Sequence record: PP554575 | DNA: 64,000 nt | Source: Escherichia phage PMBT16 | Strand: one strand, 5' to 3' | Shown: positions 48,241-60,526 of the stretch, in pieces | How the letters are laid out: each line of letters begins with the position of its first letter | Position numbering within the stretch: the stretch's first letter is position 1 | The notes under the pieces: model-generated | The model's database searches: none | Told to the model about the DNA's origin: nothing | What the model saw: only the letters and a program-made list of their open reading frames with translations | Program-made: the position numbers and the translations under genes

Positions 48241-48284
48241 GCCTATGCTATAGGATAGGTAACAATTGAAGAGGAGGTACAAAA

Positions 48285-48461
48285 ATGGAAGGTAATATGA
48301 TCCCCCTGGAAAATGTAGCTATTAATGACGCTGAGGCTATCGCCCTGGTTGAAAAGGCTATGGCGGGAGCGTTGGAACATAAAGAAGAGTACGAAAAAAT
48401 GATGGTTAACCTGGCAGGGGCGGCGGCTGGAGAATTCTACCCAAAAAATAATTTTAACTAA
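48285..48461 (+). CDS. Small protein (58 aa, unlisted)
   Basis: ATG preceded by strong RBS GAAGAGGAGG. Confidence 0.45.
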   Translation: MEGNMIPLENVAINDAEAIALVEKAMAGALEHKEEYEKMMVNLAGAAAGEFYPKNNFN

Positions 48462-48547
48462 TGGTTGACAGCTCGGACAGTTCTTGTTATTCTTATCCTC
48501 GCAAGGTGAACAACACCACACCAATTAACAGAGAGGATAAAAAAATC

Positions 48548-48745
48548 ATGAACGCCTACGGAATTAAAGTACGTCGCAACACTCGCCAGGTGGTCACCAA
48601 TCAAGTGATTTGCCGGGTGGATGTAACCATCAACAACGGGCAAGGCCTTTATAAATTTCGTCGCGGTCATAGCTATACCCTGCAACAGCTTAACCGTTGC
48701 TCCCTGACAAAAGGTCAGATCAACCACTGGTTTAATAAAAAATAA
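48548..48745 (+). CDS. Small basic protein (65 aa)
   Basis: ATG after AGAGGATAAAAAAATC; the listed longer N-terminus lacks an RBS. Confidence 0.45.
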   Translation: MNAYGIKVRRNTRQVVTNQVICRVDVTINNGQGLYKFRRGHSYTLQQLNRCSLTKGQINHWFNKK

Positions 48746-48748
48746 ATA

Positions 48749-48777
48749 TTGACATGTGGTCTGACACAAAATATACT
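48749..48777 (+). promoter_or_regulatory. sigma70-type promoter
   Basis: TTGACA-17 nt-TATACT directly after the upstream stop. Confidence 0.6.
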
Positions 48778-48809
48778 GAAATCACAAAAGACACTAAGAG
48801 GATAAAATC

Positions 48810-49208
48810 ATGAAAACCACAACCTTTAATTTTGATAATGCCGACTTCTCTTTTTCTGATGTTAAAAGCTGCCGCCGTGATCGCGGATTCTACAAGGCCT
48901 ATAATCTGGTGGGCCTGGACGATGACAATAATTTGCACGAAGTAGCTGAGATCCGGTATTATGCCGCCGCCAGCGGTAACACTCATTACTGTGTATTTTG
49001 GATTCACGACAACAAGAACAATAAGTACGGTTATACTGGCGGCAAGGCGAGCGGTCACGGTTATGATAAAGCCAACGCTGCACTTGAAAGCGCATTAAGT
49101 GCCATGGGAATCACTGCCGACGGCTGGATCTATGAAGAAGAGTTTTTGGCGGCACTTGCTAACCACTTGGGCTATAAAAAGCACATTGTAACATGCGCCC
49201 ACGAATAA
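48810..49208 (+). CDS. Hypothetical protein (132 aa)
   Basis: RBS AAGAGGATAAAATC. Confidence 0.5.
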   Translation: MKTTTFNFDNADFSFSDVKSCRRDRGFYKAYNLVGLDDDNNLHEVAEIRYYAAASGNTHYCVFWIHDNKNNKYGYTGGKASGHGYDKANAALESALSAMGITADGWIYEEEFLAALANHLGYKKHIVTCAHE

Positions 49209-49215
49209 AAAAATT

Positions 49216-49244
49216 ATTGACACGCTGCAAAATTCAAGTAAACT
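49216..49244 (+). promoter_or_regulatory. sigma70-type promoter followed by 5' UTR hairpin
   Basis: TTGACA-16/17 nt-TAAACT; hairpin GGCGGGAATGTTTCCCGCC at 49254-49272. Confidence 0.5.
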
Positions 49245-49292
49245 AGGCACAAAAGGCGGGAATGTTTCCCGCCAACACAAAGGAAAAAGATC

Positions 49293-57290: not shown

Positions 57291-57312
57291 GGAGACAATC
57301 ACCGGGCCTGCC
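57291..57312. repeat. GC-rich motif, inverted copy of 47951-47972 (right bracket of cassette)
   Basis: GGAGACAATCACCGGGCCTGCC is the exact reverse complement of GGCAGGCCCGGTGATTGTCTCC at 47951. Confidence 0.6.
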
Positions 57313-57337
57313 TGTCATATAAGAACTATAAAAACCG

Positions 57338-57366
57338 TTGACATCTGCCATAGGGTGGGGTAACAT
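57338..57366 (+). promoter_or_regulatory. sigma70-type promoter
   Basis: TTGACA-17 nt-TAACAT; hairpin GGGGCAAAAGTGCCC follows. Confidence 0.45.
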
Positions 57367-57420
57367 TTATCTTGAAGGGGCAAAAGTGCCCACACAATAA
57401 CCAGGAGAGAGGAAAACACT

Positions 57421-57693
57421 ATGTCAAGCTGGATTAATCAAGAAGTCGAATCACGTTTTAATGCTATTTGGGATCTCATCGAAAAAGAAGACGGCACATC
57501 AAGCCCCTACCTCAACAATTTGGAATTCCATTTTGTGGAAGCGATGAACGCAGAACATGATCACGAAGGTGGCGCGGATGAGTTCGCTAAAGGTTATGGC
57601 TTTAACAATGCCAACGAAATGATCGAGGCGGTCGTACTCCAGGCTGAGGAAGATTATCAATTAAAAACACTTGAATTCTGCCGCCATAAGTAA
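57421..57693 (+). CDS. Hypothetical acidic protein (90 aa)
   Basis: RBS AGGAGAGAGGAAAACACT. Confidence 0.5.
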   Translation: MSSWINQEVESRFNAIWDLIEKEDGTSSPYLNNLEFHFVEAMNAEHDHEGGADEFAKGYGFNNANEMIEAVVLQAEEDYQLKTLEFCRHK

Positions 57694-57754
57694 TAAGATA
57701 ATGACACGGGCCGAAAAGGTCCACTAATCAGAACCGCACAAAGAGGAAAACATC

Positions 57755-58018
57755 ATGAAACGTCTTGACCAGCTCAAACTAGTTCAATATATGGCTTATC
57801 GTGTTCTTGAAGTCCAGAAAGGTAGCAAAAAAGAAGTTTGCGAGAAAGCTTATAAGATCTTCACTCGCAAAAAAGATGACTGGATGCTACGCCAGACCAA
57901 AAAGGCTGACATCTTGGGGTACCTGGAAGAAGAGATCCGCCTTGAAGAACAAGAAGAGATCCGCCGTAGTGAGGCAGATTATCAGGCAGCTTGGGAAAAC
58001 TGGATGAGCAACAAATAA
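57755..58018 (+). CDS. Hypothetical protein (87 aa)
   Basis: RBS AAGAGGAAAACATC; charged and helical. Confidence 0.5.
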   Translation: MKRLDQLKLVQYMAYRVLEVQKGSKKEVCEKAYKIFTRKKDDWMLRQTKKADILGYLEEEIRLEEQEEIRRSEADYQAAWENWMSNK

Positions 58019-58037
58019 TACAACAAGATGCACGGTC

Positions 58038-58066
58038 AGGGGCTTAAAGCCCCTTTCTTTTTGTCC
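58038..58066 (+). terminator. Rho-independent terminator closing the cassette
   Basis: AGGGGCTTAAAGCCCCT hairpin followed by TTCTTTTTG. Confidence 0.7.
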
Positions 58067-58074
58067 GCTATTCT

Positions 58075-60526
58075 CACACCACAAACGGCCCCGCCTGACA
58101 AGTGGAATAACCAACAAGCCAGCAATTGCCCACACTGTACAAACATACAGGTAAAAATAACTATTGCATAATCTTTCATCTTGTGGTAGCAGGGCCATTT
58201 TTACCCGTTTTCTCCCTCAAAATTGCACGTAATGCCGCTATTGCACAAATTTTAACCTGATGCAGATCTTCAATATCTTGTCAACAAATAAAAATTCTTA
58301 TAAGTCATACACTTACATAACCACAAAAGCGCGTTCTACGTGAAAAATCGAGTATAACTATAGCCGCCAGATCTCAGAATTTACGTACGCTTACCATTCT
58401 ATAGTCTGCTAAGTATTTATTCCAACCACAGAATAACGGAATAGTCAATACCTGCATAAAATAATTATTCGTGTAAACTGCATAACATAAATCAGCTCAG
58501 GTGTCAACATTTTTCGTAAACAGTCCGAAATTATCACGATGAGTTATCATAAACAGAGAAATCTTTAGTCGTCTAATGTTTACTGTACATTACTATACTG
58601 ACTGGAATCATTAGATGACTAAGAGAAAGATAAGAAATAATTAATAATGTAATTATTTTACCTGTAACAATAAGGCAACTATGCAAACGAATGGCATGGC
58701 GCGACGGAGTCGCGACATAATATAAAAGCAGTAACCATCACCCCCGTGATAGTTTGTCTGCAAACTATTAATCAGATCATAGTTGCCTTGTATTTAGTTA
58801 ATCATGACATAACAAGCAAGGCAACTATAGATCTGCTAATAGTTGCCCTGCTTTTATATTATGTCATAGGAACGCCCGAAGGGGTGACCTAGTCACCTGG
58901 CATAGCCAGCGAAAGATTATTAACTTGTCGATTGTTATCTTGTTAATTGTTTTCATGCAAACGAATGGCATGGCTTATCATCTATGCGTGAACAGTGAGG
59001 CATGCAATAGTAACAATTGTTATTGTATCCAGTGTGTTGAGTATGCCCAGTGTGTCACTATTATGTCATATTATGTCACAGTATGTCAGACAAGTTTTTC
59101 TCCTCTTTGTCAAGTGCTGCATGAAAAATTTACAAACTGGTATGGTAGCATTTTTGCGGCCCTGTTTACATTCAGTAATGTATGTATAATCCTTGTTGTG
59201 TGGGCGTTTAGACGTCTAGACGGTTGGAAGTCCACAGGTCAATATCTAATCTATCGGCTGCTAACTATATCCCACACAAATAGTAAGAAATATGATTGTT
59301 ATATGCGTAAACTGTAACTCATGTTATCAATCCCTGTATGGATCGCCAGTGGTGCGCATAATGGGTATTATGTTAAATTGCCCGTAATGATAAAGGTTCT
59401 CACAATGATAGGTATTCTCATTCACCCTCACAAAATAGATTGCAAATGTTGTGCCACTGTGTGAACGGCCTCACCTATTAATTTGCCTCACTGCCTCGAT
59501 ATTTGAGAATTATTATAAGAATGAGAAGTATTCCCATTCCGTCCGCCTGGCAGCACTCCAGTCGCTACCGCTCATGACAGGGCAGAACTGGGTCCATTCA
59601 GATATTTCTGACTGACTCTTCAGGTCTGTGTGGGAAAAGACAACCTCTCCGGCGGGACAGGGGGATATCTGAGGAGAAATTGCAGGTCAATTAAAAAATT
59701 TACGTGGTGTATGAAGCGATCTTCAGGCAAGGTATGTATTATGGGATGAAACCCTCTTCAGGCAATGATATTTGTGGGTGTGATATTTGCTGGAAAGCCA
59801 GATATGACGGGACTCCCGGCGGGGCAGGGGTAGTACAGACAGGGAAAATATGGGGATGTAGTTGGGTAAATTGATCAGACAGGTAGAGTATGGAATATGT
59901 TACAAGTATGTTAAATATGGAGGGTGAATATCTGTAGGATTTGTGTGTAAAATCAAAGACTTAAGCGGTGCTGTGGTATTTTCTATAAATAATTCAAGTT
60001 TAATAGGTGATATTTGTCTCTATCCACTTTGTGTGGTAAACAGATTCAGATGATATTGGTTTACAAGTGTATACATAATATACAAATTAAAGATACAAGA
60101 AACCCCCCTCCCCCCTTCGGCTACCATTCACCTTTTCCTCTGACTGGTACTTAAACACTTATTCAGACTCTTCAGGTTATCACCCATATACCATATGGCA
60201 GTGACTGGTGTCCTCCGGCCCCTCTTTCGTCACCCGTCCGCTTCGCCATGCTAATGCCATAGCCAATGGTTCGGTTGTTCACCCTGTTCACTCAGGTGTA
60301 TCTCCATACCCCTTCAAACCGAAGAGAACAGAAAACCCGAATTACTCGGTAAAAGAAAAGAGAAGAACTTAATTTTATCAGGATAGGCAAGAATGTCAAG
60401 GCATGACTGCTCACCAAACAAGCAAACAGTCATGTGTGGGAGGTAAGTGATTGTGGTGGTAGGAAATTTAGTTGAAAGATGTGTTATAGGTGCTCCCAGC
60501 ACTTTAGCCGGGTAGCTAATTGTGTG
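58075..60526. other. Repeat-rich non-coding region of about 2.4 kb (candidate packaging, origin or regulatory region, or ncRNA locus)
   Basis: No credible ORF with RBS; AAGGCAACTAT and its reverse complement twice each within 58670-58850; TGCAAACGAATGGCATGGC twice; CTCTTCAGG five times; TCCGGCGGGRCAGGGG twice. Confidence 0.5.

Follow-up and report, generated by a model that had tools for sequence, protein, structure and literature searches.

The 64,000-nucleotide (nt) stretch of Escherichia phage PMBT16 DNA studied here (record PP554575; hereafter, the window) carries a 9.8-kb cassette of 29 small open reading frames (ORFs), which all lie on the plus strand between positions 48285 and 58018 and encode proteins of 34-207 amino acids (aa). 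Using a combination of methods (promoter, hairpin and terminator scans, profile and structure searches, and comparison with related genomes), we found that many of these genes stand behind a stereotyped unit comprising a sigma70-type promoter, a G/C stem-loop and a Shine-Dalgarno (SD) sequence, and that relatives differ in gene content at such units. To judge from its sequence, the window belongs to a Vequintavirus, i.e., an rV5-like E. coli phage. The cassette matched 250 phage records, of which the top ones are Vequintavirus genomes at 92-95% identity (DrSchubert/Bas50 first), and no database phage reached more than 95%. The DrSchubert genes under this match are all annotated as hypothetical, except for one putative holin. 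The layout of the window, taken from the DrSchubert annotation, is as follows:

1-13.5 kb: tail fibres
13.6-20.8 kb, minus strand: small-gene block ending at an Srd-like anti-sigma gene
21-58 kb, plus strand: long block with rIIA/B, helicase, methyltransferases, primase and DNA polymerase, then small genes
58.1-60 kb: low-GC non-coding stretch
beyond 60 kb, minus strand: convergent genes

The cassette is the distal end of the plus-strand replication/early transcription unit of about 37 kb, named '10-1-238-164' in the rV5 paper (PMC3606486). A tRNA scan of the window found none, and a search of Rfam over 47-61 kb at E up to 1 returned only two sub-threshold chance matches.

All 29 ORFs match a PHROG family of their own (E 1e-22 to 1e-89), and are therefore real genes, as counted in the first-pass annotation of this DNA; every one of these families is of 'unknown function'. 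The acidic, very basic, secreted and transmembrane (TM) products announced there were borne out by the computed protein properties. The most acidic proteins are G6 (net charge -26) and G11 (-25), the most basic are G2 and G9 (each +11 in 65 aa), G5, G8, G13, G15, G23 and G26 are hydrophobic/TM products, G25 has a predicted signal peptide and G6 is coiled-coil-like. In keeping with the lack of recognisable enzymatic motifs noted earlier, searches of Pfam, PHROGs and NCBIfam placed no metabolic or structural gene among the 29. The sole named family is that of G9, the residues 2-42 of which match Pfam PF08200 Phage_1_1 (T7 gp1.1) with 44.7 bits (gathering cutoff 21; E 1.8e-11). T7 gp1.1 has no known function; co-expressed with Ocr, it shut off host protein synthesis (PMC7064336). 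NCBIfam gave no match for the ten largest proteins, PDB sequence searches with G3, G4, G6, G11, G12, G17 and G18 gave nothing credible, and Pfam gave noise only for the G11 family alignment. G11, the largest product (207 aa), yielded a confident predicted alpha/beta model from an alignment of 17 sequences (pLDDT, predicted local distance difference test, 86; pTM, predicted template modelling score, 0.78), which found no relative among solved structures. Its invariant residues are G58, GF-x2-QGDGAS (residues 68-77), R119 and H127-E128, and its homologues occur in rV5-like phages and in jumbo coliphages of about 350 kb (one at positions 4001-4612 of locus L015). Codon use is shifted relative to the replication module, as previously proposed for GCC, CTG and CCG: the shift stands for GCC (0.31 vs 0.18), it is not significant for CTG and CCG is unchanged, while GGC (0.41 vs 0.18), CCC (0.23 vs 0.05) and CGC (0.35 vs 0.20) are also affected.

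The genes (G1 to G29) and the signals around them are listed below (CDS, coding sequence; promoters scored out of 12; P and t names are the counterparts in phage rV5; R and R' are repeats described further on):

48285..48461, + strand: G1, 58 aa, acidic (phrog_21957); no sigma70 promoter, R'-like motif upstream (cctggcagggcctatgctataggataggt)
48465..48745, + strand: G2 unit; promoter 48465-48493 (TTGACA-17-TATTCT), = rV5 P195A; CDS 48548-48745, 65 aa
48749..49208, + strand: G3 unit; promoter 48749-48777 (TTGACA-17-TATACT), = rV5 P195; no hairpin; CDS 48810-49208, 132 aa
49217..49688, + strand: G4 unit; promoter 49217-49244 (TTGACA-16-TAAACT), = rV5 P194; hairpin 49255-49273 (GGCGGGAAtgtTTCCCGCC); CDS 49293-49688, 131 aa, basic
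49687..49737, + strand: R1 repeat (family D1), promoter of G5; stop codon, TTTATTTTTA, stem arm GATGGCC, loop TTGACTCCA, stem arm GGGCCATC, then AATAAAGTAAACT
49769..49888, + strand: G5, 39 aa, TM
49889..50319, + strand: G6 unit; promoter 49889-49916 (TTGACA-16-TATAAT, 12/12, abutting the G5 stop), = rV5 P192; hairpin 49931-49945; CDS 49969-50319, 116 aa
50318..50368, + strand: R2 repeat (reference copy), promoter of G7; recombined with R1 where G5-G6 are deleted
50409..50654, + strand: G7, 81 aa (phrog_3199)
50653..50703, + strand: R' repeat; stem arm GGTGGTCC, loop TGGTAGCA, stem arm GGGCCATC, then TATAAAGATAGT; no sigma70 -35
50731-51084, + strand: G8, 117 aa, N-terminal TM
51074-51271, + strand: G9, 65 aa, overlapping G8 (Pfam Phage_1_1)
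51280..51299, + strand: intrinsic terminator, GCCCCGCcattgtGCGGGGC then TTTTTATTT
51453..51777, + strand: G10 unit; promoter 51453-51481 (TTGACA-17-TATACT), = rV5 P186; no hairpin; CDS 51517-51777, 86 aa, basic
51767..52475, + strand: G11 unit; promoter 51767-51794 (-35 inside the final G10 codons), = rV5 P185; hairpin 51805-51823 (GGCGGGAAaacTTCCCGCC); CDS 51852-52475, 207 aa
52484..52946, + strand: G12 unit; promoter 52484-52511 (TTGCAA-16-TATATT, with TGn); hairpin 52521-52541; CDS 52566-52946, 126 aa
52956..52978, + strand: intrinsic terminator, AGGCGGCGGCatattTGCCGCCT then TATTGTT; = rV5 t184
53014-53385, + strand: G13, 123 aa, two TM; 'putative holin' in BASEL records
53363-53608, + strand: G14, 81 aa, soluble
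53605-53724, + strand: G15, 39 aa, TM
53729..53748, + strand: intrinsic terminator, GGCCCCCgatcatGGGGGCT then TATCTTTTT; = rV5 t181
53779..54063, + strand: G16 unit; promoter 53779-53806 (TTGCAA-16-GATAAT); hairpin 53817-53831; CDS 53863-54063, 66 aa
54063..54113, + strand: R3 repeat (98% identical to R2), promoter of G17
54157-54456, + strand: G17, 99 aa
54474-54824, + strand: G18, 116 aa, basic, close behind G17
54858..54887, + strand: intrinsic terminator with a 13-bp stem, ATAAAGGCCATGCaaccGCATGGCCTTTAT then TATTTT; = rV5 t177
54942..55313, + strand: G19 unit; weak promoter 54942-54969 (TTGCAT-16-GATAAT, 8/12); hairpin 54982-54996; CDS 55029-55313, 94 aa, acidic
55321..55602, + strand: G20 unit; hairpin 55321-55337 (GGGGCCgaaaaGGCCCC), no clear promoter; CDS 55369-55602, 77 aa
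55599..55858, + strand: G21 unit; promoter 55599-55626 (G20 TGA stop within TTGACA), = rV5 P174; hairpin 55638-55652; CDS 55679-55858, 59 aa
55865..56078, + strand: G22 unit; promoter 55865-55892; hairpin 55905-55921; CDS 55941-56078, 45 aa
56082..56492, + strand: G23 unit; promoter 56082-56109; hairpin 56121-56144; G23 at 56162-56266, 34 aa, TM
56277-56492, + strand: G24, 71 aa, coupled to G23
56538..57209, + strand: G25-G27 group of coupled genes; hairpin 56538-56555, no clear promoter
56584-56868, + strand: G25, 94 aa, signal peptide
56871-57005, + strand: G26, 44 aa, TM
57018-57209, + strand: G27, 63 aa
57224..57251, + strand: terminator-like hairpin, AAAACAGGGCttgcaatgGTCCTGTTTT then TTGTTAT; palindromic enough to fold on both strands
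57338..57693, + strand: G28 unit; promoter 57338-57366 (TTGACA-17-TAACAT), = rV5 P168; hairpin 57378-57391; CDS 57421-57693, 90 aa, acidic
57671..58018, + strand: G29 unit; weak promoter 57671-57699 (TTGAAT-17-TAAGAT, 8/12, within the G28 end); hairpin 57709-57723 (one G.U pair); CDS 57755-58018, 87 aa
58038..58054, + strand: terminal intrinsic terminator, AGGGGCttaaaGCCCCT then TTCTTTTT; = rV5 t164

A second TTGACA lies 22 nt upstream of the G10 promoter, and the intergenic gap past the first terminator (51272-51516, 245 bp) contains C-rich repeats related to GGGCCgaaaaGGCCCC hairpins (family D5).

A correctly placed sigma70 promoter with at least 9 of the 12 consensus matches stands ahead of 15 of the 29 genes, and G19 and G29 have one with 8/12. 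The claim of the first-pass annotation that nearly every ORF has its own consensus promoter was thus overstated: seven genes (G9, G14, G15, G18, G24, G26 and G27), which overlap the preceding gene or begin at most 17 nt from it, have no promoter and are translationally coupled, and the other promoter-less genes have just a hairpin or an R'-like motif. The -35 hexamers said to lie over the preceding stop codon reduce to three cases (G6, G11 and G21), in which the hexamer touches or overlaps the end of the previous gene. Similarly, the initiation region, described as near-invariant, is a shared A-rich consensus (aaAGGAGaAAAcATC-ATG) of only about 9 bits over 21 positions, with TCATG at the start of 10 of the 29 genes. 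The AT-rich tract that holds the preceding stop codon, and the SD and start codon downstream of it, can be read directly in the sequence (e.g., 'aaaaaTAAatatTGACA' and 'TAAatttatttttaGATGGCC'). As to the frequent terminators, six plus-strand sites have the GC stem-loop followed by a T-tract that is typical of intrinsic terminators (51280, 52956, 53729, 54858, 57224 and 58038); about half of the 26 terminator-like scan matches are 5'-untranslated region (UTR) hairpins read on the minus strand, and on the plus strand these hairpins are not directly followed by a T-tract. Between 48 and 60 kb, 16 promoters are followed by an SD-ATG at most 90 nt away, versus 0-3 per 4 kb elsewhere, and combinations of promoter, hairpin and SD-ATG number nine in 48-60 kb, versus two elsewhere on the plus strand, which are probably fortuitous intragenic matches, and one on the minus strand. 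Within the window, the complete unit is confined to 48.4-57.8 kb.

The short GC hairpins that had been noticed in many 5' UTRs are present, in the form of a G-tract paired to a C-tract, in the inferred 5' UTR of 11 promoter units and in the G20 and G25 units, which have no clear promoter. When compared with dinucleotide shuffles of each UTR, the folds are strongly non-random for G4 (z -4.3), G11 (-4.5), G12 (-4.9) and G23 (-4.2), moderately so for G16 (-2.7), G21 (-2.75) and G25 (-2.6), and weakly so in five others (-1.4 to -1.8), the G19 hairpin being no better than its shuffles (z about 0). The SD and the AUG are unpaired in the predicted folds, and in the clear promoter-hairpin units the stem begins 8-12 nt past the -10 box, i.e., at about +2 to +6 of the transcript. 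In all, the cassette and six related loci yielded 58 distinct promoter-proximal folds with dG of -7 or better, a few of which are longer structures or chance matches at other offsets.

A second type of unit is built on R, a 51-nt element occurring at 49687, 50318 and 54063, with a variant, R', at 50653 (69% identical to R2). R consists of a stop codon, TTTATTTTTA, the arms GATGGCC and GGGCCATC around the loop TTGACTYCA, and AATAAAGTAAACT; it is a promoter, the -35 of which lies in the loop of a 7-bp stem. The R stems are almost invariant across the Vequintavirus relatives, and the loop varies. The R' stem closes only via G.U wobble pairs, one of which is changed to a G-C pair in phage MaxTheCat; this wobble-only pairing and the MaxTheCat change therefore point to selection on the plus-strand RNA.

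In 7-9 Vequintavirus genomes, the orthologous UTR hairpins are hot spots for substitutions and small indels, yet they nearly always remain hairpins, with compensatory or wobble changes such as AA/UU to AG/CU in G12 and GGUCC to GGCCC in G29. In every hairpin, the 5' arm is rich in G and the 3' arm in C, and the G.U pairs (in the G29 hairpin and R') occur solely in the plus sense. The hairpin structure and position are conserved; the sequence is not. MAFFT fails to register hairpins of unequal stem and loop length, and an alignment registered by hand would make a covariance model circular, its pairs having been picked by folding. A scan of IMG/VR with G12 gave only five loci, too few for large-scale covariation statistics.

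The relatives differ in the content of the cassette, as expected by the first-pass annotation. Of the 29 genes, about 21-23 are shared in the same order by the Vequintavirus genomes compared; about 6-8 vary, three extra genes occur in other phages, and the remainder is syntenic in nine or more genomes. G5-G6 are missing from ECP26 and from locus L010, and the deletion junction is a single hybrid R element combining the left flank and variant base of R1 with the right flank of R2. G22 is swapped for an unrelated 81-aa gene in MaxTheCat and naam, the left breakpoint in MaxTheCat falling within the G22 promoter spacer, just past the shared -35; in V18, ECP26, L010 and JohannBauhin, G22 is absent and the downstream segment is divergent, and the genomes devoid of G22 carry a divergent allele of G23 (about 53% aa identity). 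An extra 139-aa gene present after G29 in DrSchubert and others is flanked by two copies of the GGGGC...GCCCC terminator hairpin, of which the window has one. Several Vequintavirus relatives carry a divergent G26 (67-73% aa identity), and Alma has divergent forms of G11 (64%) and G29 (70%). The repeated modules are places at which the relatives have lost, gained or replaced genes.

The cassette has a sharp left boundary. The DNA polymerase gene (36005-38782) is 100% identical to that of JohannBauhin, and the window stays 99-100% identical to this phage as far as position 48245; from 48339 to the end of the cassette, the identity is about 94%. This drop at 48245-48339 makes the left edge a recombination boundary, essentially at the start that the first-pass annotation had given to the cassette. 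Escherichia phage records matching the cassette number 211, versus 114 for the DNA polymerase gene, the latter searched in a more sensitive mode.

Some of the genes, and the module, occur beyond the genus. G12 and G20-G27 match the Stephanstirmvirinae phages tuntematon and/or ESCO9 with 71-96% nt identity and in a different order, ESCO9 being devoid of G22 and G25-G27. The corresponding regions of the Phapecoctavirus tuntematon and the Justusliebigvirus ESCO9 are full of a unit consisting of TTGACA-N16-TAnnnT, about 10 nt, GGGCGGCAatggTGCCGCC or GGCGGGAAatggTTTCCCGCC, an SD and an ATG; the hairpin is present at 12 of 18 and 9 of 18 promoters with SD-ATG, respectively (a few sites are listed twice), and a recurrent GGCGGGAA...TTCCCGCC / GGCGGCAatggTGCCGCC sequence family is found in the Stephanstirmvirinae. 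Three IMG/VR relatives have the same promoter-hairpin-SD architecture, and the unit is present in loci L012-L014, the stems of the distant L014 being quite different (e.g., GACGGGGgatcgcTCCCCGTC and GGGGAGAGattgaCTCTCCCC). Furthermore, homologues of G11, G12 and G20 (57-64% aa identity) occur in jumbo coliphages of about 350 kb (G17/PBECO4 type), where they sit behind units of the form AAAGTACTTGCA-N17-TATAAT-N11-GGTGGGGAAtagTTCCCCGC...GAGG...ATG. By these matches, the same module type and some of the genes are common to Phapecoctavirus, Justusliebigvirus and the jumbo coliphages, in shuffled order.

The closest likeness is to the promoter-early stem-loop (PeSL) elements, which combine a sigma70 early promoter, an AT-rich upstream tract with the previous stop codon, a polyG/polyC stem-loop and an SD-ATG, and the stem-loops of which are sorted by position into five classes, among them 'overlapping -35' and 'downstream of -10' (PMC2839356). 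PeSLs lie in hyperplastic regions before the ORFans of RB49 and phi1, where indels arise through PeSL recombination and where promoter activity, terminator activity and mini-circles have been demonstrated experimentally; when inserted upstream of lacZ, behind a strong promoter, a PeSL stem-loop cut expression about as much as rrnB T1 (PMC2839356). They have been extended to PST and nt-1, two other T4-type phages (PMC4122927). Our cassette has the same order of elements, from the AT-rich tract with a stop codon through the sigma70-type promoter, the polyG/polyC stem-loop and the SD to a small ORFan. The position of the stem-loop varies here too: 13 hairpins lie downstream of the -10, as in most units, and three to four (R/R') lie around the -35, the R repeats corresponding to the class that overlaps the -35. 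The units are also clustered in a variable region ahead of ORFans, and three indel or replacement junctions lie inside modules (the R1/R2 hybrid, the promoter spacer and the gene flanked by terminator hairpins). Unlike the PeSLs, which were defined in T4-type myoviruses, our units belong to a Vequintavirus, unrelated to the T4-type phages; their dominant class puts the stem-loop within the transcript and not between or over the promoter boxes; and separate canonical terminators are present as well. The literature searched holds no paper linking PeSLs with rV5-like phages.

For phage rV5, 33 promoters and 20 terminators were predicted genome-wide (Kropinski et al. 2013, PMC3606486). The same block corresponds to rV5 genes about 164-199, all hypothetical, with ten promoters and four terminators in Table S4 (PMC3606486); nine of these promoters and all four terminators match those found here (the named counterparts are P168, P174, P185, P186, P192, P194, P195 and P195A, and t164, t177, t181 and t184). 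The rV5 paper (PMC3606486) is silent on 5'-UTR hairpins, R repeats, the stereotyped unit, indel junctions and sharing across families. The 5'-UTR stabilisers of ompA and papA, as cited in PMC3997798, likewise have a short stable hairpin near the 5' end and an accessible ribosome-binding region; this likeness is functional only, and the 2-6 unpaired nt in our units are deduced from the promoter position. The early regions of T7, T5 and T4 similarly consist of sigma70-driven small genes, and G9 belongs to the T7 gp1.1 family; T7 differs in having three tandem promoters and RNase III sites, versus a promoter per gene or group here. RNase III processing sites were rejected as an identity for our hairpins since their stems of 5-9 bp are too short for this enzyme. 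We also rejected N4-type hairpin promoters, as the promoters here are of the sigma70 type with the hairpin downstream, and the GC discriminators of stringent control, as the discriminator is A/T-rich and the GC tract starts after +1.

From these lines of evidence, we consider it likely that the cassette is a hyperplastic accessory-gene block built from PeSL-like cassettes at the far end of the Vequintavirus early unit. Most genes or short coupled groups would be self-contained expression modules comprising an AT-rich tract with the previous stop codon, a near-consensus sigma70 promoter, a G/C stem-loop, an unstructured A/C-rich leader, a strong SD and an ATG. Because the promoters are near-consensus, they would be read by the unmodified host RNA polymerase, and we infer immediate-early expression; the six intrinsic terminators would split the block into about six transcription groups. 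The asymmetry between the G-rich and C-rich arms, together with the wobble pairs, suggests that the hairpin would act in the plus-strand RNA. By analogy with ompA and papA, a 5'-terminal hairpin would slow 5'-end-dependent decay (RppH/RNase E) and shield the ribosome site from upstream sequence, and, by analogy with the tested T4-type PeSL stem-loop, it would serve in read-through transcripts as a 3' barrier or attenuator. The proteins would be non-essential modulators of the host. The promoters and the architecture thus support the earlier description of an accessory, modular block of genes of unknown function driven by the host RNA polymerase, the expression of which is probably early.

Several observations weigh against this proposal. 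Twelve genes have no promoter even at the 8/12 level, and six promoter units (G2, G3, G5, G7, G10 and G17) have no UTR hairpin. G13-G15 form a coupled trio without a promoter (53014..53724), directly after a terminator; their expression may depend on read-through or on a non-sigma70 promoter, and hence may not be early. A transcription start 6-8 nt past the -10 would leave 2-6 unpaired nt before the stem, which is borderline for 5' protection; such protection reportedly requires a near-terminal stem, according to work by Emory, Bouvet and Belasco in 1992. By this analogy, the role as a 5' stabiliser is plausible and not secure, an attenuator role is about equally likely, and the two are compatible. 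Since PeSLs were defined in T4-type phages, our units are classed as sharing their architecture, and not as homologous members of that family. G18 is missing from naam and V18 through an ORF-precise deletion with no flanking repeat, and the extra 103-aa gene that other phages carry after G27 was inserted by an ATGA start/stop overlap; repeat-mediated exchange is therefore not the sole route. The detailed comparison covered about 12 related Vequintavirus genomes, and since our literature search found no transcriptome of a Vequintavirus, and no functional work on the cassette genes, promoter use, timing and 5' ends are deduced from the DNA.

Other explanations concern either the genes or the hairpins. 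The first-pass annotation had regarded the cassette as a dedicated host-takeover or anti-defence island, in which most of the small proteins inhibit host functions or immunity. Small genes of unknown function behind early-type promoters, with very acidic (G6, G11) and very basic products, would fit such an island, as would the membership of G9 in the gp1.1 family, given the joint effect of gp1.1 and Ocr on host protein synthesis (PMC7064336), the varying presence of some genes among close relatives, and the archaeal-virus precedent, as outlined in PMC11065993, for the discovery of anti-defence genes guided by regulatory motifs. However, searches of Pfam, NCBIfam, PHROGs and PDB sequences matched none of the 29 products to a characterised inhibitor (a search with anti-defence-specific hidden Markov models was not made), and G11 has no structural relative. 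Moreover, an exceptional sensitivity of Vequintavirinae to restriction-modification (RM) systems is reported in the BASEL study (PMC8594841), a 2026 study reports that they are restricted by Druantia III and ARMADA II, about three quarters of the genes are retained in the same order within the genus, which makes the cassette less variable than a typical counter-defence hotspot, and several membrane or secreted products fit superinfection exclusion or lysis control equally well. We regard such an island as possible and rather doubtful. The evidence obtained speaks neither for nor against inhibitor roles of individual proteins, and the anti-defence reading is a hypothesis.

As for the hairpins, they may mainly be sense-strand attenuators or terminators of read-through, the canonical PeSL role, each promoter restarting transcription at a set level. 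The effect of the tested PeSL stem-loop on lacZ, similar to that of rrnB T1 (PMC2839356), and the location of the R hairpins upstream of their own start site, so that they can act on upstream transcripts only, both argue for it; the UTR hairpins, however, are followed by A/C-rich sequence (ACCAACACAAA) and no U-tract, T-tract terminators occur separately at six sites, and hairpins placed after the promoter would dampen the module's own transcript too. We hold this role, taken as the main one, to be a minority possibility. It is still less probable that the hairpins are sites for a phage or host RNA- or DNA-binding regulator that times or shuts off all modules together. They keep a constant distance from the promoter in several phage lineages, the GGCGGGAA...TTCCCGCC / GGCGGCAatggTGCCGCC family recurs in the Stephanstirmvirinae, and the R stems are invariant, operator-like inverted repeats centred on the -35; yet the stems differ so widely among the units of one genome that there is no common binder sequence, the G.U-only pairing of R' argues for recognition of RNA over duplex DNA, and no candidate regulator was identified. 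A role in terminating antisense transcription from the convergent minus-strand block on the right, which starts near 60 kb, would agree with the scan, which calls many hairpins terminator-like on the minus strand (e.g., GGCGGGAAGTTTTCCCGCC then TGTGTGTTTA). We find it very improbable, as these minus-strand T-tracts are poor and are a by-product of the A-rich -10 to +1 region, a G.U pair on the plus strand turns into a C.A mismatch on the minus strand, the hairpin position is fixed to the plus-strand promoters, and the terminator at 58038 already guards the boundary. Lastly, promoter-like and hairpin-like matches may arise by chance or composition in AT-rich intergenic DNA, consensus scans being noisy (44 promoter-like sites were found, versus an average of 29 per shuffle). 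This explanation is effectively refuted by the restriction of the complete units to one strand and one 10-kb stretch, by the four hairpins with z below -4 and by the maintenance of the units in relatives with compensatory changes.

Several other features were observed around the cassette. A Fur-box-like site at 48053-48071 (GATAATGATAATCGTTCTC) has two mismatches to the E. coli Fur consensus (0.01 expected by chance) and overlaps the -10 of a promoter-like site, TTGCAT-N18-GATAAT; a weaker copy (TTGAATGATAATCATTCTC) lies 135 nt upstream, at about 47918-47936, and both boxes are conserved in every examined Vequintavirus locus covering them. X, a C-rich element of about 55 nt with the core CCCGGTGrTTGTCTCC, occurs at 47945-47990 and 48079-48125, directly past the two Fur-like boxes, and inverted at 57262-57318, between the G27 terminator and the G28 promoter. 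Its 28-nt arms, which are 93% complementary and 9318 nt apart, bracket G1-G27. The X copies, which have no Rfam match, are conserved in relatives, where they are over-annotated as tiny CDSs; they could be small RNAs or recombination sites. The region at 47330-47900 belongs to a non-coding tract of about 900 bp, which contains iteron-like AAATGGATTTT motifs and, at 47617-47802, a repeat of 65-74 nt in three tandem copies; it could be an origin or a regulatory region. On the other side, the stretch at 58100-60000, with a GC content of 0.39, is non-coding, lies between the convergent blocks and corresponds to the 'non-coding' box of the rV5 map (PMC3606486). It contains tandem repeats (58915-58951 and 59053-59088), a palindrome (59199-59236) and an R' fragment (58184-58203). 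The deposited genomes of slur16, EdH4, HdK5, bov11CS3 and isim begin 1.4-3 kb past the cassette, and since several genomes start there, this stretch may hold genome ends.

We also noticed public annotations that look wrong: the label 'DNA translocase FtsK' on an 87-aa homologue of G29, 'phosphoribosylpyrophosphate synthetase' on a protein of about 70 aa in tuntematon and ESCO9, 'membrane protein' on G12, the maximum hydropathy of which is 0.72, and the title 'Campylobacter phage' on 22 records (MG0656xx) that are about 93% identical to this coliphage cassette.

The cassette is real and ordinary in kind, being a PeSL-like block in a well-sequenced genus, the promoters and terminators of which were partly published. 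The present analysis adds to this by recognising the unit and the R repeats, by locating recombination junctions and a sharp mosaic boundary, and by tracing the unit and some of the genes to Stephanstirmvirinae and jumbo phages. As a more speculative proposal, to which we give limited credence, the promoter-hairpin-ribosome-binding-site modules may be a shared, effectively mobile 'plug', with which RB49-type T4-like phages, Vequintavirinae, Stephanstirmvirinae and jumbo phages would trade ready-to-express early genes; the hairpin distance would be kept by a common E. coli constraint (5'-end protection or attenuation), and the phages would draw on one gene pool, including undiscovered inhibitors of the host or of its defences.

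Few coliphages are isolated as often as the rV5-like ones, which are candidates for therapy; small ORFs without annotation make up about a fifth of their genes. Autonomous modules read by the host polymerase would provide a rule for finding the true starts and the first-expressed genes, and for cloning them with their native signals. Together, these data extend beyond the T4-type phages the PeSL idea that regulatory repeats act as recombination points shuffling accessory genes, and they suggest a gene pool common to at least three groups of coliphages.

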